Source of the DNA: Patescibacteria group bacterium
Lineage (GTDB): Bacteria > Patescibacteriota > Dojkabacteria > JAKAPS01
Assembly: GCA_025450075.1 (NCBI GenBank)
Contig: JANWIC010000011.1
Location: 902-64,901 of the forward strand
Length of the DNA: 64,000 bases
Reading direction: 5' to 3'
Part shown: piece after piece, positions 9,534-60,578 of the stretch
How the letters are laid out: the number at the start of each line of letters is the position of its first letter
How positions within the stretch are numbered: position 1 is the stretch's first letter
The notes under the pieces: generated by a model
What the model was told of the DNA's origin: nothing
Database searches by the model: none
The model's input: only the letters and a program-made list of their open reading frames with translations
Translations under genes and position numbers: made by a program

Positions 9534-12068
9534 ATGGATGCAATAAAAAATACAGCTTTGAAAGACATTATCTCTAGTATTACAGACTCTTTAATCTCCT
9601 ATTTACTGCAAAACTCTAAAGATGTTTTGTATGTAAACATGCCACCAGTAAAAATTCCTGAGAAGTTTGAACGTTATATTACTATTGATGACAGGATCCC
9701 TTCAAAGAAATTTGATACCATTATTATAAATATGGATAAAGAAGTAAATGCCGAAAAGGTGGCAAAATATGTCAATAAATTTCAAAAGTATCTCCTTTTG
9801 GTGCATGGTAACAATCAATTTTTTGATCCGCGAAGTTATCCTGAAGTACGAATTGCAATTAGTACATCTCCAATAATTGAACACGTTCATACATTCACAA
9901 AATTAAGTGAAGGCTACAAAGAATTTCGAGATTCACAAGAGAAATTACAAAAATTTATCAAAGAGCATCATTTAAAACTTGGCATAATTGCACCAACGAC
10001 ACAGAATCAATTTGACCATATCCTCATTTTCCATGACAATAATTTAAAGGATCTCTTTATATCATATATTGAAAATGAAAAGAATGAAGATATTTTTCAC
10101 GAATTCTATTCCATGACCTTTTCCCAATATGCAAAGCATATTGACAGCAGGAATATTCGTTTCCAGAAAAATGCTTCCTACCTTATTAAACAATTACAAA
10201 CTGGAAGCAATAGTACCAAAAGAGGAATATCATCGATTTTTCATTCATTGCAATTACATTTGCCTATCATCATACAAAAGATGCGAGGGAAATCAAATGC
10301 AATTGGATCAAAATTACAAAAAGGAATTCAGACTATTTCTAAAGCAAGAACAAATATTCCAAAAGTAGAAAACAAAGAAAAACTCACCAATAAAAAACCT
10401 CATATGCAGTTAAAAACTGCAACTATACAAAAGGAGAAAGTATCGTCTCAATTGGACAAATTAAAAGTTACACTTTATCAAAGACAACACATTCCTATGG
10501 TGAAAACGATGTCATATGAATCATTTCTTGCAAGACAAAAAAAAGGATTTTTAGAACAATTACAGGAACGACGTTCTTTGCAAACTCTCAAACTACAACC
10601 GAAAGTATCCATACTTTTGGTTGTTGATGATATTGATGAAATTTGGTTAAACAAATCTGTTCGATCAATTAAAGACCAGACATATAAACACTGGGAACTG
10701 GTTATAGTTGATAATTGTTCTCCTAGGACATATTTGAAATCATATTTATCATCTTTAAATGATCCACGAATTAAAACCCATTTCTATAACACAAAAAAGA
10801 CATATGCAGAATGTCTTTCCCATGCATATAAAGTGGCGAAAGGTGAATATTTAGCAATTCTTCATGAAGGAGATGAATTGGATATCAATCTTCTATATCA
10901 TTTTGTTCGGGAAATCAACAAAGAATCGTCACTCGAGTTTATCTATTGTGATGAAGATGAAATTAATGAACAGGGAAAACGAGTTCATCCATTTATCAAA
11001 CCTGCTTGGGATAAAACTCTCATTCTATCTTATCCATATGCAAAAAATATATTTGTTGCAAAGCGGGAATTGCTTGAAAGGATAGATGGATTTAAAAACC
11101 TTGCTACAAAAGACCCGTTATGGGATATCATGATCAAAACAAGAAGTGCAACAAATAATATTGGCCATATCTCTAAAATCTTGTACCATAAACGCCATCG
11201 TCCACTCCAGTCAGGAACACCAAAACAGGTCTATCCTGATGCAATTAAACAATTTATGGCAAGAGAAACAATCCAGGGTGTTGTTAAAGAATCACAATAT
11301 CCGGGAAGCTTTTATATCATTGATAAGCAAGTACAAAATCCACAAGTGTCTTTAGTATTGATTGAGCAAAACCCTGACAACCTCGCAAAGTTTCTGGAGA
11401 ATTTCTCCTGTTCATACAATCAATTTGATATTCATGCCGTATTACCAGTAAATACCCAATTCTCAAACAAGGAAAACATCTATCTCCATTCATTCCAAGA
11501 TTTCTCATTTAGCAAAATTACACAACAAATTCTTCAAGAAAGTAATAGTGACTATCTGCTCTTCATCGACAGTAGGATTCGACCTGTTAATTCGGATTTT
11601 TTATCTATTATGCTTAGTTACAGTCAAAATCGTGCTATAGTTGGAACTAAAATCCTTGATCCGGATGACATGGTTATTCATTCGATGTATGTCCTCAATC
11701 TCCGAGAGGTTGTATCAAGTCTTTATGAAGGACAGATTGATCAAGGCCAATTTGATATATCAATCACACGAGAATGCAGTGCTGTTTCAAGAAAATGTAT
11801 GCTTGTACCAAAGGAATTTCTTCTTACTCATCAATTAGATGATGGATATACTTCATCATATGCTGATATTGATTTGTGTCTGCAGGCACAAAAAGATCAA
11901 ATTCCAGTTATATATACTCCTGATGCATATGCAAAAGCAATTTATGCTTATTCCAAAGAAAAGTTTCACGAGGCAGATACGGTCTATTTTATAAAGAAGT
12001 GGAAAGAAAAGTTAAAAGGAAATGATCCATTCATAGATATCTCCCGTTTCCTATCAATCAAAGCGTAG
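9534..12068 (+). CDS. Large multidomain glycosyltransferase: unknown N-terminal domain followed by two GT2 (GT-A) domains
   Basis: 844 aa. First GT2 signature VSILLVVDDIDEIWLNKSVRSIKDQTYKHWELVIVDNCSP. Second GT-A-like domain runs from about aa 600 (QVSLVLIEQNPDN... DDGYTSSYADIDLCLQ). The N-terminal 350 aa have no recognisable motif. Confidence 0.6.
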   Translation: MDAIKNTALKDIISSITDSLISYLLQNSKDVLYVNMPPVKIPEKFERYITIDDRIPSKKFDTIIINMDKEVNAEKVAKYVNKFQKYLLLVHGNNQFFDPRSYPEVRIAISTSPIIEHVHTFTKLSEGYKEFRDSQEKLQKFIKEHHLKLGIIAPTTQNQFDHILIFHDNNLKDLFISYIENEKNEDIFHEFYSMTFSQYAKHIDSRNIRFQKNASYLIKQLQTGSNSTKRGISSIFHSLQLHLPIIIQKMRGKSNAIGSKLQKGIQTISKARTNIPKVENKEKLTNKKPHMQLKTATIQKEKVSSQLDKLKVTLYQRQHIPMVKTMSYESFLARQKKGFLEQLQERRSLQTLKLQPKVSILLVVDDIDEIWLNKSVRSIKDQTYKHWELVIVDNCSPRTYLKSYLSSLNDPRIKTHFYNTKKTYAECLSHAYKVAKGEYLAILHEGDELDINLLYHFVREINKESSLEFIYCDEDEINEQGKRVHPFIKPAWDKTLILSYPYAKNIFVAKRELLERIDGFKNLATKDPLWDIMIKTRSATNNIGHISKILYHKRHRPLQSGTPKQVYPDAIKQFMARETIQGVVKESQYPGSFYIIDKQVQNPQVSLVLIEQNPDNLAKFLENFSCSYNQFDIHAVLPVNTQFSNKENIYLHSFQDFSFSKITQQILQESNSDYLLFIDSRIRPVNSDFLSIMLSYSQNRAIVGTKILDPDDMVIHSMYVLNLREVVSSLYEGQIDQGQFDISITRECSAVSRKCMLVPKEFLLTHQLDDGYTSSYADIDLCLQAQKDQIPVIYTPDAYAKAIYAYSKEKFHEADTVYFIKKWKEKLKGNDPFIDISRFLSIKA

Positions 12069-14570
12069 AGGCTGGTTAGGGAGTATCTGAGTTCTTCTTT
12101 CTTCATGATGTGAACGTTCTTCTTCAAAAAGAGGTGCAGAAACATTTTTTATCTCTTCATGTTTGAATTGATATGCTTTCATACTCCATTCCTTTATCCA
12201 TTCGTTTACATCTGCTTCAGGGGATGCATACATTGTTCTACTGTATCGCAATATTTCATCCCGAATATGTGTAGCAGCAAAAGGCATTTGGATACTTGCA
12301 GCACTAAATGGTTTTGATACAACTCCTTGTATCATCAGCTTCACATAGACCTCATATCTATCAAGACTCATAAGATCATTTGCTGATAGAATTGGAAGAA
12401 ATTCTCTTTCCAGCACTTGCGCATCTGGGGACCCGAGAACAAAGGTAATGAGCGTTCCAATATTTCCCATGATCGCATCTTTTACATGTTCTTCAAGTTG
12501 TGAAAGATGTTGATGTGCAAGAATTAAATCAAGACGATATTTCCTTGCCTCTGAAAGGATTTTTGTAAATACATCGGTTGCAAACACCTGGAATTCATCG
12601 ATATAGAGATAGAAATCCTCTCTCTGGCTTTCTAAAATACTTACCCTTGCCATTGCAGCCATTTGCATTTTTGTAATTACTAGGCTACCAAGAAGTGAAG
12701 CATTTTCTTCGCCAATTTTCCCTTGAGAAACGTTGCATAAGAATATTTTCTTCTTATTCATGATTTCATCAAAATCAATTTTGTTATGTGTTTGACCAAT
12801 AATATTCCGAAGCATCGGTGATGAAACAAATCGTCCAACTTTGTTTTGAATCGGGGTAATTGCCTCAGTTACTAATCTCGGATTTCTTTCCATATATGCA
12901 TATTCTTCATTCCAAAACTTTTGCAGTATCGGATCTGTTATATTGGAAACGACATATTGTCGATATCCTTTATCAGTAAGCATACGGGATATACCAAGAA
13001 GAGTTGCATCAGGAGTATATAAAAGACTTAATATGACATTATGTAAAATATATTCTAGACGTGGTCCCCATGAATCAAAATGTTTTTTAAATACTGCAAG
13101 GATGCTTGCTGCAATATATTCTCTCTGGGAAGGATGGTCAAATGCAAATATGTTTAAAGAGGCAGGATAAGCAGAATCAGATGGATCAAGCAAGACCACA
13201 TCTTCAACCCGTTCAGATGGAATATGTTCAAGTATTTCATCAATCAGGTCGCCATGAGGATCTATTACACCAACCCCATTACCGGCAAGGATGTCTTGCA
13301 AAATCATATTGCACAGCATTGTCGTCTTACCGCTCCCAGTTTTTCCAAGAAGATACATATGTTTCCTTCTATCTTCTTTCAAAATCCCAAACTGTTTCCC
13401 TCCGCCTCGGTAATTTGTCTGTGCTATGGTAAGCATATTATCTGTCGGCAAATTTAATGGTGGATCAGATCTTCTTGCTTTGAGCCAAATAATTTCTGGT
13501 GTTGTTATGTTTGCATGAGGAAGATGATAAAGTGTAGCAATTTCTGCACAACTGAAAATATCCTGCGCTTCAACATCCAAAAATCTAGTTTTATAATGGT
13601 CAAGCATTTGAGCAGTATATTTATCATTATCCTGTAATACTTTTAATGAATTAAGATGGAATGAATCAACTTGTTTCAGTGCATGAATTACATTTAACAG
13701 GTGTTCTTCAGCCCTCTTTACATCTTGAGATGAAGAAACAATACGAATAGTGCCAGCATAACCATGCTGATGGAATTTTTCTTCGATGGAGTGAATTTCC
13801 TCTTCTTGTGTCTTATCAAGCATCACATTAGATTTTACTTTCCAATGTCTTACTCCAAATATCCATTCATAGATCCTTGTTGTTACGGTAAAAATTGATA
13901 GCCCTGCTTTCCAACCGCTTTTTATTTTAGTCCCTTTTTGCCACGCGGTTAAGTATTCTTTCCCTGCTTTGTGCCAGCTATCATGTAGCGGCCTTATGAC
14001 AAACTGTATTCCCATAGAATCAAACTGCTCCATCCCACCTAATGAAGATGTGATTGATGAAAGTAAATCAACATGAAATTGTTCTCCTGTTTTTATTGGG
14101 AAAAGTGATTCTTTTTCCAATTCGATTTCTGCAGCCTTTATGGTCATTTGCATTTCTCCCCCCATATGCAAACCCTGGGCATAATCATCAACGACATTAA
14201 TCTCTGCTGAAGGATAATGTGCATACCATTGTCCTTCTATATAGTTTTTGTATTGCCGGGGACATACGATATACCATTGGATACCAAAAGGTGTAGCATA
14301 ATATTCACAACTCAAATGGACATAAGAATGTCTCTTTTTTCCCACTATGCTGTGCATAGATGAAAAAAGTTGTTGCGCTTGATCATAGGAAGAAAGATCC
14401 TGTTTCGGGACAAGAATTCGTAATACAACACAATCTTGTATTGTTTCCTCAATATTGTCGATATCAAGATCCCGATTGCGGATAATTTCAATAATTACCG
14501 ATACTGAGATGATAACAATAATTGCAATGATCCAACCAATGCCAAACTCTGGTATTGAAAAAAGAGGCAT
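12054..14570 (-). CDS. Membrane-anchored FtsK/HerA/VirD4-superfamily P-loop ATPase (type IV coupling protein-like, DUF87-like)
   Basis: 838 aa with an N-terminal TM helix and a roughly 400-aa domain without recognisable motifs. Walker A GKTGSGKTT followed by VIDPHGDL. Walker B FYLYIDEFQ. AHQHLSQL resembles the TQS..QL motif of TraD/VirD4/HerA ATPases. Confidence 0.55.
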   Translation of the reverse strand: MPLFSIPEFGIGWIIAIIVIISVSVIIEIIRNRDLDIDNIEETIQDCVVLRILVPKQDLSSYDQAQQLFSSMHSIVGKKRHSYVHLSCEYYATPFGIQWYIVCPRQYKNYIEGQWYAHYPSAEINVVDDYAQGLHMGGEMQMTIKAAEIELEKESLFPIKTGEQFHVDLLSSITSSLGGMEQFDSMGIQFVIRPLHDSWHKAGKEYLTAWQKGTKIKSGWKAGLSIFTVTTRIYEWIFGVRHWKVKSNVMLDKTQEEEIHSIEEKFHQHGYAGTIRIVSSSQDVKRAEEHLLNVIHALKQVDSFHLNSLKVLQDNDKYTAQMLDHYKTRFLDVEAQDIFSCAEIATLYHLPHANITTPEIIWLKARRSDPPLNLPTDNMLTIAQTNYRGGGKQFGILKEDRRKHMYLLGKTGSGKTTMLCNMILQDILAGNGVGVIDPHGDLIDEILEHIPSERVEDVVLLDPSDSAYPASLNIFAFDHPSQREYIAASILAVFKKHFDSWGPRLEYILHNVILSLLYTPDATLLGISRMLTDKGYRQYVVSNITDPILQKFWNEEYAYMERNPRLVTEAITPIQNKVGRFVSSPMLRNIIGQTHNKIDFDEIMNKKKIFLCNVSQGKIGEENASLLGSLVITKMQMAAMARVSILESQREDFYLYIDEFQVFATDVFTKILSEARKYRLDLILAHQHLSQLEEHVKDAIMGNIGTLITFVLGSPDAQVLEREFLPILSANDLMSLDRYEVYVKLMIQGVVSKPFSAASIQMPFAATHIRDEILRYSRTMYASPEADVNEWIKEWSMKAYQFKHEEIKNVSAPLFEEERSHHEERRTQILPNQPLRFD

Positions 14571-14630: not shown

Positions 14631-17624
14631 TTAAGAAAATGATACGTAGAGAATTTTATCATCCACTCCTATAGGTTTTCCTTGTTGTTCACCTGTTTCT
14701 TTAACAGAAGATGCATTCACTGCTTTTTGCAATATCATCGAATTTTTTGCTACAAGATCTGTTAGTTCCTGGTTATCAGAGAAATATACAAGATGTATCT
14801 TATCATCCATCTTCAAATTTTCATCTTTTCGCATACTTTGGATATATCGGATGATTTCCCTAAGCATTCCTTCCTCTTTCAATTCTGGCGTGATACGGGT
14901 ATCTAGAGTTACAAAAAGGTGCATTGCTTCTCCATCTTCAGATTGAGTAACAAATCCTTCAGCTACTTTGCCATTTTGAGAATATATAACTTCCTTTACA
15001 TTCAGCTCATCTTTAATGATTTCTTGCATATCTTCATCTTTGATCGGCACAATTGCACTTGCAAGTGGCTGTCGAACTTTCAGACTGTTTGTCACTCGGA
15101 TACTTTGACCAAGAGATGAAAGCTTCCGGACAATTGCCATGCTTTCCAAAATCTTTGTGTTGATTTCTTTTGTCGTATCTGGATAAAATTCAAGATGCAC
15201 TGATTCCTTAGCTTCTTTTAACCCTGCACCTACAACAAGATTTTGGTAAATCTCTTCAGTTAGAAAAGGCATTTGTGGAGCAAAAGTCTTTGCATATTGC
15301 ACCATTACGGCATAAAGTGTTTGCAAGGCATCAGTGTCTCCCTCAGCAAATCTTTCCCTTGATCTTCTGATAAACCAGCTTGAGATCCCATCGATCGCTT
15401 CCTGTGCAAGTTTTACAGATGAAGGTATATTATATGCTTCTAGTCTGGAAGCATATTCTTTACTTATCATAAGCATGTATTCTCTTACCCAAATATCAAG
15501 CGGATTAGAAGATGTATATGCAGTTGTTTTTGGAGTCCAGTTATGGACATTTGCATAAATCACCAGATATTTATATGTATTCCAGATAGGAAGCAAAACA
15601 TTTTTAATCTGTTCTTTCAAAAGTTCATCTGACCAGTTCATATCATCTCCAACCATGATAGGAGATCCCATCATATACAATCGGAGTGCTTCTCCTCCAA
15701 TATGCTCAAGCACTTCCTTCGGATCAGGATAGTTTCCATAAGATTTACTCATCTTTCTTCCATCATTTCCTGCAAGAACTCCTGTACAAATGACATTTTT
15801 AAATGCAGTATCATCAAATATGATAGTTGAAAGCCTGAGAAGCACATTAAACCATGCCCGAACTTGGCCAATATATTCAATGATATAGTCGGCAGGACCG
15901 GATTGTTCATACACTTCTTTGTTTTCAAATGGATAATGGTATTCTGCAAATGGGACAGATCCTGAATCCATCCAGCAGTCTAATACTTCAGGTACACGGT
16001 GATATTCCTTACCATCTTTTTTCAGAACTATCTTATCTCCCACATCTTTATGAAGATCGAAGGGTTTATTCTCAAAGAAATATGATACTTTTCCATTTAC
16101 TTCCTTCTTACTCACCTGGTCAGTATATGTCAATAACTCTGCAATACTGCCGATGACAATTTCATCTCCATCTTCATTTACCCAGATTGGCATGATTGTT
16201 GCCCAGAAACGGTTTCGGGAAATACACCAGTCTGGAGATGTCGCAACAGTTTGAGCAAATCTTCCATCTTTAATATATTCCGGTATCCAATTTAATTCCT
16301 GGTTCAATTCAAGCATTCTATCCTTGATCTTTTGAATATTGATAAAATATGCATCCTGTGCCATATATATCAATGGGTTTTCACCTCGATAAAACGGTAA
16401 CCTGTGTGTATAGGGAAGCGATCGAAGTAATCGCTCTTTTTGCTGCATATCTTCCGCAACGAGTGGAGAGGCATCTCGAAGATATATTCCTACCCATGGA
16501 TCCAAAGTCATTTTCCCTGCTTCATCAATATCCGGGATTGCACTTAATTCATGTTTCAATCCAAAATTGAAATCGACCTCTCCAAATGCAGGAGCTATAT
16601 GAAGGACTCCAGTTCCTTCATCAAGAACGACATCATCACTTATATAAACATGAAAATCATTTTCCTGTTTTTTGTCTTCAAAAAATGTATAAACTGGTTC
16701 ATAAGCCAGTCCATCAAGCTTTTTCCCTTTAAAAGTATCACATATCTGGACAGCCATATCAGGCTCAGTTCCAACCTCGTTATCATGTACACCAAATGTA
16801 TAAGCCACCCTGTCTTTGGCAACAATAAAGTATTCACCAATATATTTGACTAGGCAATAATCTGCTTTTTCATTTACTGCTAATGCAAAGTTTGCAGGAA
16901 TCGTCCAAGGAGTTGTAGTCCATGCGACCATATATACAGGCTCAGTTTTGTTGAAAGGATTCTTTTCCTGAAGTGGAAACTTCACAAAGACGCTGAGATC
17001 TTCAACATCTTTATAGTTATCAGCATCCATAGCAACTTCAAATTGAGATACTGGTGTTGATGTATCTGTCGAAAACATTGATACCCGCTTTCCTTTATAT
17101 ATAAGACCTTTATCATAGATCTGCTTAAATCCCCATATAACTGATTCCATATATTCAGTACTCATGGTGTAATATGCATGATCCATGTCTACCCATCTGC
17201 CTATTTTATCAATATACCATCGCCAATCTGATGTGCATGTTTTGATATATTCCTTACATGCATCAATATAAGCATCAACTCCAACCCTATTTTCAATTTC
17301 TGCACTGGATTTAATTCCTAATTTTTTATTCACTTTTTCCTCAATTGGTAATCCATGGCAATCCCACCCCCATACTCTTCTTACTTTCTTCCCTTTCATA
17401 GTCCAGTATCTGGGTATAACATCTTTTGCAATAGAAGGCAGTAATGATCCGTAATGAGGATTTCCTGTTACAAACGGTGGTCCGTCAACAAACTTATACC
17501 TGTCATCATCAGGTCTTTGGTCGACTGACTTTTGAAAGATATCATGTTCTTTCCAGAATGCTGTGATTCGATCTTCCATCTGGGGAAAATTAACACGTTC
17601 ATCCACTTTTTTAAATGCTGCCAT
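14631..17624 (-). CDS. ileS: Isoleucyl-tRNA synthetase
   Basis: About 1000 aa class I aaRS. GWDCHGLPIE (IleS-specific), KMSKS (KMSKSYGNYPDP) and a HIGH-region variant PHYGSL. The ORF track begins at a TTG at 17645; the ATG at 17624 (MAAFKKVDERVNFPQ...) is the likelier start. Confidence 0.85.
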   Translation of the reverse strand: MAAFKKVDERVNFPQMEDRITAFWKEHDIFQKSVDQRPDDDRYKFVDGPPFVTGNPHYGSLLPSIAKDVIPRYWTMKGKKVRRVWGWDCHGLPIEEKVNKKLGIKSSAEIENRVGVDAYIDACKEYIKTCTSDWRWYIDKIGRWVDMDHAYYTMSTEYMESVIWGFKQIYDKGLIYKGKRVSMFSTDTSTPVSQFEVAMDADNYKDVEDLSVFVKFPLQEKNPFNKTEPVYMVAWTTTPWTIPANFALAVNEKADYCLVKYIGEYFIVAKDRVAYTFGVHDNEVGTEPDMAVQICDTFKGKKLDGLAYEPVYTFFEDKKQENDFHVYISDDVVLDEGTGVLHIAPAFGEVDFNFGLKHELSAIPDIDEAGKMTLDPWVGIYLRDASPLVAEDMQQKERLLRSLPYTHRLPFYRGENPLIYMAQDAYFINIQKIKDRMLELNQELNWIPEYIKDGRFAQTVATSPDWCISRNRFWATIMPIWVNEDGDEIVIGSIAELLTYTDQVSKKEVNGKVSYFFENKPFDLHKDVGDKIVLKKDGKEYHRVPEVLDCWMDSGSVPFAEYHYPFENKEVYEQSGPADYIIEYIGQVRAWFNVLLRLSTIIFDDTAFKNVICTGVLAGNDGRKMSKSYGNYPDPKEVLEHIGGEALRLYMMGSPIMVGDDMNWSDELLKEQIKNVLLPIWNTYKYLVIYANVHNWTPKTTAYTSSNPLDIWVREYMLMISKEYASRLEAYNIPSSVKLAQEAIDGISSWFIRRSRERFAEGDTDALQTLYAVMVQYAKTFAPQMPFLTEEIYQNLVVGAGLKEAKESVHLEFYPDTTKEINTKILESMAIVRKLSSLGQSIRVTNSLKVRQPLASAIVPIKDEDMQEIIKDELNVKEVIYSQNGKVAEGFVTQSEDGEAMHLFVTLDTRITPELKEEGMLREIIRYIQSMRKDENLKMDDKIHLVYFSDNQELTDLVAKNSMILQKAVNASSVKETGEQQGKPIGVDDKILYVSFS

Positions 17625-17830
17625 AACTATATTGATAAAATACAAAAAAACACCCTTATCTCAGGGTGTTTTAAAACACGTACCGTCCTGTTTCGTCATA
17701 GAGTTTATGACCTTTTTTCGCTGTTTCGGGCTTACCCGTCCGGTTCTACTTAGCTTTTCTGCTTTTCTTCCGGCTCCTTGCTGCTGATAACAGCTTAATC
17801 GGATGGCATCATTATATACAAAATATGAAT
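17625..17830 (-). promoter_or_regulatory. Candidate T-box riboswitch leader of ileS (transcription attenuation type)
   Basis: Minus-strand RNA contains hairpin GCUG-UUAUCAG-CAGC with the Ile codon AUC followed by A in the terminal loop (AUC at 17786-17788). Stem III-like hairpin GUCAUA/UAUGAC. T-box-like AACAGGACGGUACGUG. The antiterminator (CAGG - 7-nt bulge ACGGUAC - GUGUU/AACAC - CCUG) has a 3' strand that is the 5' strand of the intrinsic terminator. Confidence 0.5.
17643..17672 (-). terminator. Leader intrinsic terminator (attenuator) upstream of ileS
   Basis: Minus strand: AACACCCUGAGAUAAGGGUGUU followed by UUUUUUU, about 20 nt before the ileS ATG. It overlaps the putative antiterminator. 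Confidence 0.55.
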
Positions 17831-20952: not shown

Positions 20953-21483
20953 GTGAAATATATTCTTATCGTTTTTCTTTTTCCCTTAACCGTTCTTATC
21001 CTCTATCCCTTGTTTCCGAAGATTTCGTATGAGTTTCATAAAAACACATACGAAAAATCCTATCAGGCATTTACAACATCCTTTCATACTAGCCTTCATC
21101 AAAATATGCTCATCATGCCACAAATCGGGGTCTTTGCTCCAATTAAAGAAGGGGATCAAAACCAAGCACTTCGGGAAGGAGTATGGCATGAAACCTATAC
21201 AGGAACTCCGGATAGGGGGAATATGGTTCTTGCTGGACATCGATTTTTATATCTTCCTCCAAATAACACAACACTATATAACCTGGATGAGGTAAAAATT
21301 GGTGAAAAAATATATGTTTTCTGGAACACTAAGATGTATACCTTCAAAATCTCATCCATTCAAACAGTGACTCCTGATGATTTACATATACTTGATCAGT
21401 CATCCCACCAGCTTACCATTTATACATGTACGCCACTTTGGACAGCAGCTAATCGGCTTGTTGTTATATCAAAGCTTATATAA
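20953..21483 (+). CDS. srt: Sortase (class A/E-like transpeptidase)
   Basis: 176 aa. N-terminal TM anchor. Catalytic triad context LAGHR (His), LTIYTCTP (TLxTC Cys) and ANRLVV (Arg). GTG start at 20953, 4 nt after AAGGAGG. Confidence 0.75.
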   Translation: MKYILIVFLFPLTVLILYPLFPKISYEFHKNTYEKSYQAFTTSFHTSLHQNMLIMPQIGVFAPIKEGDQNQALREGVWHETYTGTPDRGNMVLAGHRFLYLPPNNTTLYNLDEVKIGEKIYVFWNTKMYTFKISSIQTVTPDDLHILDQSSHQLTIYTCTPLWTAANRLVVISKLI

Positions 21484-21988
21484 TCCAGAAACGATACAGT
21501 TTATGAGCCCACTGCTTTGCATAGCCAACTCCAATCCTTTCACCTTTTTGGATATTTTTAGCAGGTGGAGCATCAAAGATATAACAATTAGGATTAGTAA
21601 CAATATCCGTATAGTTGTATGTCTTATCTATGCCAAGATATGCTGAAAACTTTCCAGGTCCTTTCACAAGTATGCCCTCTTCTGTTTTTCCTGCTCGAAG
21701 CAGTACGGCACCCGGCTGGTTTTCTTCACCCATAACAAAATTTGTGCAGTAATGCAACCCATAAACTACAAAGACATAGAGGATACCACCTGCATGGAAT
21801 AACGGATCAGTTCTAGTAGTTTTTCCAAACCTTGCATGTGAAGCCAAATCTTCTGGTCCAAGGTAACCTTCAGTTTCGGTTATAATAAGTGATTTATCAT
21901 TGACTATAAACTTTTTTCCAAGGAGCAACTTTGCACAAGAAATTGGATCTTGCAAAAAAAATTGTTTGGTAAGTCGATTTCTTATCAT
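21476..21988 (-). CDS. mpg: DNA-3-methyladenine glycosylase (Mpg/AAG family)
   Basis: 170 aa. ITETEGYLGPEDLASHARFGKTTRTDPLF..GGILYVFVVYGLHYCTNFV matches the MPG family core. Confidence 0.8.
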   Translation of the reverse strand: MIRNRLTKQFFLQDPISCAKLLLGKKFIVNDKSLIITETEGYLGPEDLASHARFGKTTRTDPLFHAGGILYVFVVYGLHYCTNFVMGEENQPGAVLLRAGKTEEGILVKGPGKFSAYLGIDKTYNYTDIVTNPNCYIFDAPPAKNIQKGERIGVGYAKQWAHKLYRFWII

Positions 21989-22039
21989 TTAAAATATGCT
22001 AACAATTAAGAAATAATATTGCAAATATATATTTCTTAG

Positions 22040-22200
22040 GTTACAATACAAACAGAAAGCGTATGAGGCAGATTTTCCACCTGCCGAGCTGTTCGAGGTA
22101 ACAATCGAACCGGGATGCCCGTAATAGCAATAATCAAGTATTCGTTAAGGTGGCACCTTCAAGCCTAGCTTGACCTTAACATAATGTATATTATGTTACC
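22040..22200 (+). promoter_or_regulatory. Candidate T-box riboswitch leader of serS (translational type, no terminator)
   Basis: Hairpin GGCAG-AUUUUCCAC-CUGCC at 22067-22085 with the Ser codon UCC followed by A in the loop. Textbook antiterminator at 22144-22178: UUAAGG / 7-nt bulge UGGCACC / UCAAGC-CUA-GCUUGA / CCUUAA. UGGC is complementary to the GCCA end of tRNA-Ser (discriminator G). An alternative 9-bp hairpin at 22176-22197 abuts the start codon. Confidence 0.6.
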
Positions 22201-22203
22201 CTT

Positions 22204-23448
22204 ATGGTCAATCTAAAAGATCTTCTTCAAAATCCAGAAAAATACAAAAAAGCAATAATTGATAAAGGATATAATCCTGAACTTGTTGATTCTGTAGTAC
22301 AATTTAGTATGAAACAAAAAGAATTAGTTTCAGAAGTTGAAAATCTTAGAGCAGAAAGGAAACAATTAGGAAAGAATAACAATACTTCCATAGATGAAGG
22401 GAAACTCATTAAAGAAAAATTGAAGCAATTAGAACCGGAAGCAGACAAAATCCAGGAGGAATTGCAGCGTGTTCTTAACCAGATTCCTAATCCCGCATTA
22501 CCTGATGTTCCTGTTGGAAAAGGTGAAGAAGATAATGTAGAAATTAAAAAATTTGGAAATATACCTCAATTTTCATTTGAACCAAAAAACCATCTTGAAC
22601 TTGGTGAAAAGTTGCATATTCTCGATTTCACAACAGGAAGCAAAGTTACCGGTACCCAATTCTATTTCCTTTTAGGTGATGGAGCAATGCTAGAACTTGC
22701 ATTAACGCAATTTGCATTTAAGAAACTCATCAATAAAGGATTTACACCTGTCATTACCCCTGATCTTGCAAAATCCCGCTTCTACTTAGGAACAGGATAT
22801 GTACCAAAGGGAAATGAAGCGCAAACATACGTCATTGAAGGAGAAGATCTCGGACTAATTGCAACCTCAGAAGTCACTCTTGCTGGGAGACATGCAGATG
22901 AATCAATACCAGAAGAATCACTGCCGCTAATGTATGTAGGTTTATCTCATGCTTTTAGACAGGAAGCAGGTGCATACGGAAAATATTCTAAAGGATTATA
23001 CCGTGTTCATCAATTTTCAAAAATTGAAATGTTTGTCTACTCAACACCTGAGGAATCTGCAAAATACCATGACATGCTTCTTGGCATTGAAGAGGAAATT
23101 TATCAGGATCTTCAAATTCCATACCGAGTACTGGAGATGTGTACAGGTGATCTTGGTGCAATTGCTGCAAAAAAATATGATATAGAAGCATGGATGCCGG
23201 GAAGAAACGGATATGGTGAAGTAACATCTACTTCAAATTGTACGGATTACCAGGCAAGAAATCTTAATATTAGGATTAAGATGGGAGATGGAACACACGT
23301 ATACGCACATATGCTCAATGGTACAGCGATAGCAATATCCAGAACACTCATTGCAATACTTGAAAATTATCAGCAAGAAGATGGATCTGTGATAATCCCT
23401 GAAATATTACGGTCATATATGGATAAAGATGTCATTCGAGCAGCATAA
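22204..23448 (+). CDS. serS: Seryl-tRNA synthetase
   Basis: 414 aa. N-terminal coiled-coil arm, then class II core motifs (e.g. FRQEAGAYGKYSKGLYRVHQFSKIEMF and GTAIAISRTLIAILENYQ). Confidence 0.9.
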   Translation: MVNLKDLLQNPEKYKKAIIDKGYNPELVDSVVQFSMKQKELVSEVENLRAERKQLGKNNNTSIDEGKLIKEKLKQLEPEADKIQEELQRVLNQIPNPALPDVPVGKGEEDNVEIKKFGNIPQFSFEPKNHLELGEKLHILDFTTGSKVTGTQFYFLLGDGAMLELALTQFAFKKLINKGFTPVITPDLAKSRFYLGTGYVPKGNEAQTYVIEGEDLGLIATSEVTLAGRHADESIPEESLPLMYVGLSHAFRQEAGAYGKYSKGLYRVHQFSKIEMFVYSTPEESAKYHDMLLGIEEEIYQDLQIPYRVLEMCTGDLGAIAAKKYDIEAWMPGRNGYGEVTSTSNCTDYQARNLNIRIKMGDGTHVYAHMLNGTAIAISRTLIAILENYQQEDGSVIIPEILRSYMDKDVIRAA

Positions 23449-23520
23449 GTACTAACTGGTGATATTTGACATTTACATACGTATACATCTTTGCTATCCT
23501 AGATATATAATTCATAAAAT

Positions 23521-24093
23521 ATGGCTACAACATTACAAACCAATTTCCGTGGACTGAAACCAACGAAATCAATTGAGGAATATATTGAAAAGAAATTGGA
23601 TTTTCTTGACCGGTATGATAAATATATTGAGCATATCAATATTGAAGTTAATGACAATCGTTCAGAATCTCTTTCCATTACGTACCAGGTCACAATTTCA
23701 GTAAAAGGGGGACTTCTTAGAGTGGAAGAAAAAGGCGCAGATTTATACGCAACAATTGATTTGGCTAATGACATCCTGAAGATGAAGATGGAAAAATATA
23801 AGGAGAGAATAACGAACAAAAAGACAGAAAAAGAGAAAATTTCTCTTACCGAAGAAATACAGGAAGTGAATGAGGATGATAGCTATACAGATGGAGCTTA
23901 CTATACTCCAAAAATTGCAAAAAGGAAAATATATTCAGATAACAGACCACTTCATCCCATTGAAGCCATTGAACAAATGGAAATGCTTGGCCATACGTCG
24001 TTTCTGTTTAAAGATATTGAGACAGGAAAATACGGTATGGTATACAAACGAACTGATGGTGATTACGGATTAATTGAACCGGAAAATCCTTAA
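23521..24093 (+). CDS. hpf: Ribosome hibernation-promoting factor, long form
   Basis: 190 aa. N-terminal RaiA/YfiA fold (EEYIEKKLDFLDRY...SITYQVTISVKGGLLRVEEKGADLYATIDLA) plus a C-terminal dimerisation extension. Confidence 0.8.
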   Translation: MATTLQTNFRGLKPTKSIEEYIEKKLDFLDRYDKYIEHINIEVNDNRSESLSITYQVTISVKGGLLRVEEKGADLYATIDLANDILKMKMEKYKERITNKKTEKEKISLTEEIQEVNEDDSYTDGAYYTPKIAKRKIYSDNRPLHPIEAIEQMEMLGHTSFLFKDIETGKYGMVYKRTDGDYGLIEPENP

Positions 24094-34886: not shown

Positions 34887-34959
34887 TGACCCTACCGGGA
34901 TTCGAACCCGGATTGTTGGAATGAGAATCCAATGTCCTAAACCATTAGACGATAGGGCC
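34887..34959 (-). tRNA. tRNA-Glu (anticodon CUC)
   Basis: Cloverleaf folds cleanly: acceptor GGCCCUA/UAGGGUC, T-loop UUCGAAU with a 5-bp GC stem, anticodon stem UUGGA/UCCAA and loop UUCUCAU. No encoded CCA. A TATAAT box lies about 13 nt upstream. Confidence 0.8.
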
Positions 34960-60252: not shown

Positions 60253-60562
60253 CCAGTAGTTCAAGTGGCTGCGTATATGGATTCCATATATGAGGAAAGT
60301 CCGAGCTCAGGCAGACCTAGTCTGCAGACGTGCTGGGTAACACCCAGGGGGGAGTGATCTTCCGAATAGGGCAACAGAAAATATACAGCTAAGGTTTCTT
60401 AGCAATGGTGAAATGGCAGGGTAAGAGCCTACCGCTTGCCTAGTAATAGACAAGGCAGTGCAACCTCCACATGAGCAAGTAGAGAACTACGCATGAGCTT
60501 TAGTGAGAACTAGAGCCTAGATAGATAGCCACATAAACAGAACTCGGCTTACGGACTACTGG
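60253..60562 (+). ncRNA. rnpB: RNase P RNA, bacterial type A
   Basis: P1 CCAGUAGU...ACUACUGG. P4 GAGGAAAGUCCGAGCUC. GGGUAACACCCAGGGGGGAG. GGGCAACAGAAA. GGUGAAAUGGCAGGGUAAGAGCCUACC. ACAGAACUCGGCUUA. All align to the M1 RNA consensus. No ORF in this span. Confidence 0.9.
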
Positions 60563-60578
60563 TATTAAATATTTACAT

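Follow-up and report, generated by a model that had tools for sequence, protein, structure and literature searches.

A probable T-box derivative with an ultrashort Stem I in the serS leader of a Patescibacteria genome

Here we describe the leader of serS, the seryl-tRNA synthetase (SerRS) gene, in a 64,000-nucleotide (nt) stretch of a Patescibacteria group bacterium (assembly GCA_025450075.1, contig JANWIC010000011.1, positions 902 to 64,901 of the forward strand), hereafter the window, to whose positions all coordinates refer; leader and gene lie on the + strand. The anatomy of the leader, its gene context, its homology to other serS leaders and the covariation among them make it very probably a T-box derivative whose Stem I is ultrashort. 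Taken as a whole, the region ~22052-22203 is best explained as a compact T-box riboswitch for tRNA-Ser(GGA), for which we propose the control of translation initiation as output, a reading to which we give slightly better than an even chance.

Anatomy of the serS leader

The gap upstream of serS measures 215 nt and follows a divergently transcribed methylpurine glycosylase gene. It accommodates a kink-turn (K-turn) at the base of a very short Stem I, a short Stem II, a Stem IIA/F-box block, an A-rich linker and a discriminator core in which helices A1 and A2 flank the T-box bulge (Table 1), and both the anatomy and the order of these elements agree with the Rfam T-box consensus and with the features set out in a review of the class (PMC7583486). 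The Rfam landmarks gCgaUGA..GGAGc (K-turn), CGg..cCGUUA (Stem IIA/F-box) and aGGGUGGUACCGCG correspond in the window to GCGUAUGA..GAGC, CGGG..CCCGUAA and AAGGUGGCACCUUC, respectively. A transcript initiated at the candidate promoter P1 would begin a few nt upstream of the first leader helix, and in the other leaders for which the contig includes the 5' end, a -10-like hexamer likewise precedes the first helix by 3-9 nt.

The K-turn at the base of Stem I carries a 4-nt bulge in the window and takes the canonical 3-nt form in the related loci L016, L170 and L172. Above it, the hairpin with UCC-A in its loop, which a first-pass annotation had proposed as an ultrashort, tRNA-Ser-specific Stem I with an apical specifier, was recovered. 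The AG-bulge/distal-loop T-loops with which a long Stem I binds the tRNA elbow are not present in this stem of five base pairs (bp) and a 9-nt loop. The specifier triplet is cognate to the gene downstream and has a purine after it; its third-position C and the A next to it conform to the T-box rules set out in the review (PMC7583486). The Stem IIA/F-box block is spelled CGGG-AUG-CCCG-UAAUAGC (22111-22128) and may form a IIB pseudoknot between UGC (22116-22118) and GCA (22127-22129), a pairing backed by one compensatory change, U-A in the window being A-U in L016.

The discriminator base of bacterial tRNA-Ser is G73. The UGGC directly 3' of A1, where the bulge between A1 and A2 has its 5' edge, is thus complementary to the G73-C-C-A end of tRNA-Ser, with its C opposite G73, as the first-pass annotation had stated. 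The same annotation had called the A1/bulge/A2 arrangement a textbook antiterminator: the arrangement is present, with 1-nt shifts and an A1 of 7 bp (one more than listed), and the adjective is not borne out, because the bulge has 8 rather than 7 nt (one U had been dropped), A2 has no G-U pair and Stem III is missing. Overall, the serS leader is a reduced T-box, devoid of the distal Stem I platform, the S-turn, Stem III and the A2 G-U pair and furnished with an 8-nt bulge. No tRNA-Ser gene was found within the window. Two internal complementarities were also observed in the leader, one between the specifier region CCACCU (22077-22082) and the T-box AGGUGG (22148-22153), the other between GCC.A in the A2 loop (22163-22167), which mimics the tRNA 3' end, and UGGC (22151-22154); either may allow self-masking in the absence of tRNA.

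Table 1. Positions of the leader elements, the related leaders and other features of the window (a locus name before a colon marks positions on that locus)
Feature	Position	Strand	Basis or remark
Candidate promoter P1, TTGCAA-17-TACAAT	22019..22047	+	Consensus scan, 9/12 matches; predicted activity
K-turn and ultrashort Stem I, AGC/GUAU/GA/GGCAG-AUUUUCCAC-CUGCC/GA/GCU	22058..22090	+	Rfam T-box consensus
K-turn strands, AGC/GUAU/GA and GA/GCU	22058-22066; 22086-22090	+	
Stem I, GGCAG, loop AUUUUCCAC, CUGCC	22067-22071; 22072-22080; 22081-22085	+	5 bp; loop of 9 nt
Specifier UCC (Ser codon) and conserved purine A	22076-22078; 22079	+	Apical loop; invariant in six serS leaders
Short Stem II, GUUCGA-GGUAACAA-UCGAAC	22091..22110	+	RNAalifold (window and L016): 6 pairs, 2 compensatory and 1 one-sided change; manual parse agrees
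Stem IIA (CGG(G)/(C)CCG) and F-box-like CCCGUAAUAGC	22111..22129	+	Rfam consensus; block also in L016 and all ileS leaders
A-rich single-stranded linker AUAAUCAAGUAUUC	22130..22143	+	14 nt, at the usual place of Stem III
Discriminator core: A1, bulge UGGCACCU, A2	22144..22180	+	Descriptor scan; all pairs standard
Helix A1, GUUAAGG : CCUUAAC	22144-22150; 22174-22180	+	7 bp
T-box bulge UGGCACCU	22151..22158	+	8 nt; complementary to G73-C-C-A of tRNA-Ser
Helix A2, UCAAGC, loop CUA, GCUUGA	22159-22164; 22168-22173	+	6 bp
Candidate internal promoter P2, TTGACC-16-TATGTT	22170..22197	+	Consensus scan, 9/12 matches; ends 6 nt before ATG
AU hairpin, UAACAUAAU-GUAU-AUUAUGUUA	22177..22198 (22177-22185 / 22190-22198)	+	9 bp; in minimum free energy and centroid structures
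serS, seryl-tRNA synthetase, 414 aa	22204..23448	+	Open reading frame; homologues named seryl-tRNA synthetase with PF00587, PF02403
Mini serS leaders, ~85-105 nt	L168:1-83; L169:866-959; L170:1508-1612; L172:1495-1587		
ileS leader, T-box-like	17640-17812	-	Upstream of ileS
ileS, isoleucyl-tRNA synthetase	14631-17624	-	Pfam-supported
838-aa open reading frame	12054-14570	-	TrwB/TraG-type coupling-protein domains (type IV secretion); adjoins ileS
tRNA-Glu(CUC)	34887-34959	-	Rfam
RNase P RNA, bacterial class A	60253-60566	+	Rfam, 215.9 bits

Related serS leaders and covariation

The SerRS loci of relatives were drawn from genome and metagenome contig collections. The best named SerRS and isoleucyl-tRNA synthetase (IleRS) matches of the window belong to Microgenomates, Woesebacteria, Amesbacteria and Dojkabacteria at 60-68% identity, in line with the earlier impression of a genome of the Candidate Phyla Radiation (CPR) type. 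The closest SerRS relative (P0002, 68% identity) has a 207-nt gap upstream of its serS. Three motif scans of viral contigs produced chance matches only, among them two contigs that share a sample with P0002.

A search for the Stem IIA/F-box block picked up the locus L016, whose leader (942-1072) follows the same plan: a K-turn (UGCG/CAG/GA..GA/UGCA), Stem I GUCCG-AAUUCCAU-CGGAC, Stem II GCUCGG-UGUCGCAA-CCGGGC, the block CGGG-UUAG-CCCG-UUAAAGC, an A-rich linker and GUUGAGG-UGGCACCU. The alignment of the two leaders spans 104 nt, K-turn through bulge, and has a local score of 49 (z = 16.7); shuffled sequences score 14.8 +/- 2.05 (maximum 27, n=2000), and out of 13,573 real but unrelated windows of 140 nt the best reaches 30. 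On this pair, RNAalifold recovered the C-stem at the K-turn as well as Stems II and IIA; three of the pairs are compensatory, among them a change in the C-stem, and the manual parse added two further compensatory pairs in Stem I and the one in the proposed IIB pairing. The leaders are ~60-70% identical while the SerRS proteins are only 49% identical, which argues for purifying selection on the leader.

The contig of L016 (CAZWKN010000002.1) is titled 'uncultured Gammaproteobacteria', and its SerRS is closest to Paceibacterota/Microgenomates proteins (61-78% identity), which suggests that it is mislabelled or mis-binned.

Five more leaders were reached through the SerRS relatives of L016. One, L428, preserves just the 3' part (bulge and terminator) and resembles L016. 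The other four (L168, L169, L170 and L172) are mini leaders without the Stem II/IIA domain, in the place of which L170 keeps one small hairpin; an A-rich linker joins their K-turn and Stem I (loop CUUCCAA or CAUCCAA) to A1 (CUUCAGC/GCGGAAG), the bulge and a 3-bp A2, and they end 12-15 nt before the AUG with no terminator and nothing recognisable as an output. All seven leaders are followed by serS or by a His_Phos_1-serS operon. The five other serS leaders that include Stem I have the K-turn as well, whole or as its 3' half. Because MAFFT mis-registers Stem I loops of unequal length, pairs in Stem I were counted from a manual parse checked against the sources: in the six leaders with Stem I, 30 of the 30 cells are paired and three positions covary. 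UCC-A occupies the apical loop in every one of the six (AUUUUCCAC, AAUUCCAU, CUUCCAA three times and CAUCCAA), that is, in all five besides the window, and six of the seven leaders (five of the six others) have UGGCACC as their bulge, with UGGCAAC in L172. The conservation anticipated for orthologous serS leaders was thereby borne out. The motif AAAUURAGUAC is additionally conserved just upstream of A1 in the other serS leaders.

In L016 (1049-1075) and L428 (20-56), the UGGCACC bulge gives way at once to a hairpin followed by U7, with differing hairpin sequences; we therefore read it as a terminator at the place of A2, with the U-tract at the place of the A1 3' strand. Since these two leaders have the hairpin and U7 while the mini leaders have nothing recognisable, the output module of the family is labile.

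Two observations concern the annotation of these loci. A gene of the PF00300 histidine phosphatase family lies directly upstream of serS in L016 (1120-1737), L169 (970-1593) and L161 (779-1504), and in L016 and L169 it is placed behind the T-box leader; it may encode a phosphoserine phosphatase co-regulated with SerRS. Public gene calls also begin inside leaders, the 1021-aa IleRS of L165 (from 563) running through the terminator and the 418-aa SerRS of L170 (from 1601) starting at an AUG in the discriminator, and both calls are likely over-extended.

A sibling leader on ileS

The ileS gene of the window is preceded by a leader of 190 nt with a T-box-like organization of its own (Table 1). Its Stem I (GCUG-UUAUCAG-CAGC) has AUC-A in the apical loop, its Stem II contains the internal loop AAGAAA/AAGUAGAA, an S-turn signature, and these are followed by the IIA/F-box block CGGG-UAAG-CCCG-AAACAGC, a Stem III (GUCAUA-AACUC-UAUGAC) with purine flanks, A1 (CAGG/CCUG), A2 (GUGUU/AACAC) and the terminator AACACCC-UGAGAUA-GGGUGUU-U7; the fold z-score of the leader is -3.2. 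Homologous ileS leaders on three other Patescibacteria contigs (L165, L166/L167 and L164) display a covarying Stem I (ACCG/CGGU in L166), AUC in every loop and terminators, and their Stem IIA also covaries (CAGG/CCUG in L165). The bulge in all four ileS leaders is ACGGUAC(C)/ACGGUAAC, not UGGN-ACC. One genome therefore carries two synthetase leaders built on one plan, each with the cognate codon in its apical loop.

Descriptor and covariance-model searches

A strict descriptor, which asked for an A1 of at least 4 bp with its 3' strand, a bulge beginning UGGNACC and the hairpin of A2, found five sites in 1.74 Mb comprising the window and the loci collected for comparison; the top score is shared by the window site, and the sites in L097 and L016 likewise lie upstream of serS. 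A relaxed A1/bulge/A2 descriptor returned 93 matches, essentially noise, and was discarded. The nonamer GGTGGNACC occurs once in the window against 0.56 occurrences expected on both strands, which is not significant by itself, and the fold z-score of the whole leader is -1.89.

The T-box model of Rfam (RF00230), to which the first-pass annotation had looked for support, gave no match in the window at gathering score, nor in 21980-22260 at E<=10; at this latter threshold the ileS leader and six related loci also went without a match. We do not take this negative as a refutation, because the canonical serS T-box control, L097, obtained just 32.3 bits against a gathering score of 93. The long Stem I, which the window leader lacks, takes up about half of the RF00230 positions.

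Proposed mechanism

From these features we infer tRNA binding and, above all, the output step. The K-turn and the 5-bp Stem I would display UCC and the following A in the apical loop to the anticodon; downstream of them would come the short Stem II and then the Stem IIA/B-F-box element, and the 3' domain (A1, the bulge UGGC-ACC-U and A2) would pair with the G73-CCA end of an uncharged tRNA. Without tRNA, the A1 5' strand would shift onto CUUGAC (22169-22174), leaving UGGC masked and the AU hairpin beside the AUG complete, and the alternative helix UUGACC:GGUCAA could also cover the start codon. Uncharged tRNA would then stabilise A1 and A2, take 4 nt from the AU hairpin and remove the start-covering strand.

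Folding of 22140-22230 yielded a minimum free energy (MFE) structure of -18.4 kcal/mol, with the A1 5' strand in this shifted register, UGGC paired to GCC.A of the A2 loop and the AU hairpin fully formed. A start-covering structure, with UUGACC (22170-22175) paired to GGUCAA (22206-22211), was predicted 1.3 kcal/mol above it. The competing sequestrator candidates in these predictions are hence the register-shift helix together with the AU hairpin, on the one hand, and the helix over the start codon, on the other. A1 and A2 alone amount to -12.5 kcal/mol and the best structure in which they are forced to -14.3; the gap of 4-6 kcal/mol could plausibly be paid by tRNA pairing and stacking.

As to the output, no terminator-like site was found in 21400-23600, in accordance with the first-pass annotation, and the absence is real, because ileS in the same genome has a canonical U-tract terminator. 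There is no Shine-Dalgarno sequence upstream of serS either, and hence none held in a sequestrator helix. Such motifs are scarce in the window (11 of the 58 genes, under a loose criterion), and TATAAT-like boxes stand 6-14 nt before the ATG in many of its genes, from which we take it that short-leader or leaderless mRNAs may be widespread there. The classical Shine-Dalgarno sequestrator can therefore not apply, and with no terminator and with the Shine-Dalgarno sequence barely used, the control of translation initiation is the most likely output.

Evidence against the proposal and alternative explanations

Several observations weigh against a working T-box with this output, and the first group concerns the element itself. 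The AGUA/GAA internal loop of an S-turn was not seen in the Stem II of the serS leader, and no Stem III with the purine flanks RRRxG...AA was found, there being no conserved hairpin at that place in any serS leader; Stem III has been described as indispensable for the binding of the tRNA 3' end (PMC7583486). Instead of the G-U wobble expected as the steric sensor at the base of A2, which L016 has, the window shows U22159-A22173 and an extra unpaired U22158. To these are added the lack of an RF00230 match and the result of a covariance model (R1) made from the four mini serS leaders, which gave the window leader 11 bits (E = 2.6, rank 4), so that R1 does not demonstrate that it is homologous to the mini leaders. 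Among the serS loci that could be read, the nearest (L001, L081-L085 and L161-L163) have short leaders or none, and the leader is also absent from L031 and L171, which makes for a patchy distribution.

The second group concerns the switch. When the ON fold was enforced, the mean unpaired probability of -23..+12 went from 0.45 to 0.44 (0.53 with the linker single-stranded), and that of the AUG, 0.60 in the free fold, fell to 0.26-0.56. The AU hairpin, which the first-pass annotation had described as mutually exclusive with the antiterminator and 6 nt from the start codon, exists and is only partly exclusive: it overlaps the A1 3' strand by 4 nt (22177-22180), re-registers as a 7-bp stem when A1 forms under constrained folding, and lies 5 nt (CCCUU) from the AUG at 22204. 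It is also weak, at about -5 kcal/mol alone, and is not conserved in the relatives. Finally, the possible internal promoter P2 could bypass the leader; if used, this candidate would yield a leaderless serS mRNA starting near 22204. Because start accessibility barely shifts in these models and the hairpin is weak and unconserved, translational control, which the first-pass annotation had suggested, is plausible and, taken on its own, falls somewhat short of an even chance. The remaining probability is divided between a non-switching relic or promoter bypass and another output.

In the first of these alternatives, the leader descends from a T-box but has ceased to switch, serS being expressed constitutively, for instance as a leaderless mRNA from the internal promoter. 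The missing terminator, Shine-Dalgarno sequence and conserved sequestrator would fit such a state, as would the want of a clear ON/OFF difference at the start codon, the loss of Stem III and the A2 G-U pair, the absence of the leader from most related serS loci and the position of P2, whose end 6 nt upstream of the ATG resembles that of the -10 boxes near the start in many window genes. Promoter-like matches are, however, frequent in such AT-rich DNA (18 observed against 8.9 expected). Every helix of the leader is, moreover, intact and perfectly paired, its identity with L016 exceeds that of the SerRS proteins, as under purifying selection, and the specifier and bulge are invariant across the relatives except for the single L172 substitution; we consequently regard a relic as unlikely.

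A working T-box whose output is neither translation initiation nor intrinsic termination, acting instead through Rho- or pause-dependent attenuation or through tRNA-dependent protection of the 5' end from decay, is somewhat less likely still. The element starts a few nt from the predicted 5' end of the transcript in all relatives, no convincing sequestrator was found, the mini leaders stop short of the AUG without an alternative helix, and the hairpin and U7 of L016 and L428 show that the family can couple to transcription; yet nothing positive spoke for Rho sites or RNase targets, at which no test in the window was aimed. Lastly, a chance resemblance, in which an unrelated structured 5' untranslated region happens to have GGUGGCACC and a UCC hairpin, could appeal to the missing Rfam match, the near-expected frequency of GGTGGNACC and the modest fold z-score, but is close to refuted by the significant L016 alignment, by the same elements in the same order upstream of serS on six other contigs with covariation, by the agreement of the K-turn, F-box and T-box sequences with the Rfam consensus and by the cognate AUC in the ileS sibling. 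The compact T-box for tRNA-Ser(GGA) accordingly remains the explanation that we prefer.

Other Rfam matches in the window

The class A RNase P RNA and tRNA-Glu(CUC) listed in Table 1 are the sole Rfam matches at gathering score in the window.

A possible clade of minimal T-boxes and its significance

Together, the leaders may represent an uncatalogued clade of minimal T-boxes (~85-125 nt) in Patescibacteria (Microgenomates-like), without the elbow platform or Stem III and in an organism that hardly uses the Shine-Dalgarno sequence, a tentative grouping to which we give a little less than an even chance. Its output modules appear interchangeable, with an AU hairpin in the window, a terminator in A2 and the A1 3' strand in L016 and L428, and nothing recognisable in L168-L172. 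No report that connects T-boxes or natural riboswitches with the CPR or with Patescibacteria was found in the literature, the coverage of which was incomplete, so that an earlier description is possible.

T-box catalogues such as Rfam and TBDB rest on covariance models; the class II model of TBDB was searched in Actinobacteria only, and its class I model is dominated by leaders with a long Stem I. As RF00230 detects neither the window leader nor any of its relatives, the extent of tRNA-sensing regulation in Patescibacteria has probably been put too low. The members of the family are minimal designs from nature, with no elbow contact, no Stem III and sometimes no Stem II, on which to test which T-box parts the reading of tRNA identity and charging truly needs, and they raise the question of T-box control with neither a terminator nor a Shine-Dalgarno sequence. 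If functional, these would be the smallest natural tRNA-charging sensors and would imply that the tRNA 3' end can be read without the need of Stem III. Regulatory RNAs are almost unexplored in ultrasmall, host-dependent bacteria, and a sensor of serine and isoleucine charging would inform on how these organisms cope with amino-acid supply.

Comparison with known T-box systems

The closest architectural counterpart is the ultrashort-Stem-I class of actinobacterial ileS leaders (Mycobacterium, Nocardia; Sherwood et al. 2015; structures 6UFG and 6UFM), for which the output is translational (PMC7583486). In both, the specifier sits in the apical loop of a short Stem I that stands on a K-turn, the elbow-binding double T-loop is missing, the region of Stem II is followed by the IIA/B-F-box, a UGGN bulge lies between A1 and A2, and there is no intrinsic terminator. 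Unlike that class, the window leader belongs to serS in Patescibacteria, reads UCC, measures ~125 nt in total and has neither Stem III nor a Shine-Dalgarno sequence to sequester. Its Stem II, a simple hairpin of 6 bp, lacks the S-turn that is essential in the actinobacterial class, where an S-turn with a string of five purines in Stem II clamps the codon-anticodon duplex (PMC7583486).

With the canonical transcriptional T-boxes (RF00230; Bacillus subtilis tyrS and serS), the window leader shares the K-turn GCG.UGA...GAGC, the F-box-like CCCGUAA, the A1 and A2 helices, a UCC-type specifier with a third-position C and a following A, and the placement upstream of an aminoacyl-tRNA synthetase gene. 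It differs from them in having no internal specifier loop with S-turn, no AG bulge/distal loop, no Stem III, no terminator and no A2 G-U pair, in its 8-nt bulge and in being missed by the covariance model.

The glyQS-type T-boxes, which have no Stem II and no IIA/B, find their parallel in the mini leaders L168, L169 and L172, where Stem I passes through a linker to the discriminator, and another likeness is that the codon, as in the Gly case, is G+C-rich (UCC, which pairs with GGA). In contrast, the long Stem I and its elbow platform, Stem III and the terminator are all retained in glyQS, whereas the window leader keeps Stem II and IIA.

Within the Patescibacteria themselves, the ileS leaders (window and L164-L167) depart from the serS leader by the S-turn in Stem II, the Stem III with purine flanks, the U-tract terminator and the ACGGUAC bulge. 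The ileS sibling of the window nevertheless shares with it the same genome, the apical-loop specifier (here AUC-A), the CGGG..CCCG.AA.AGC block and the order of the elements.

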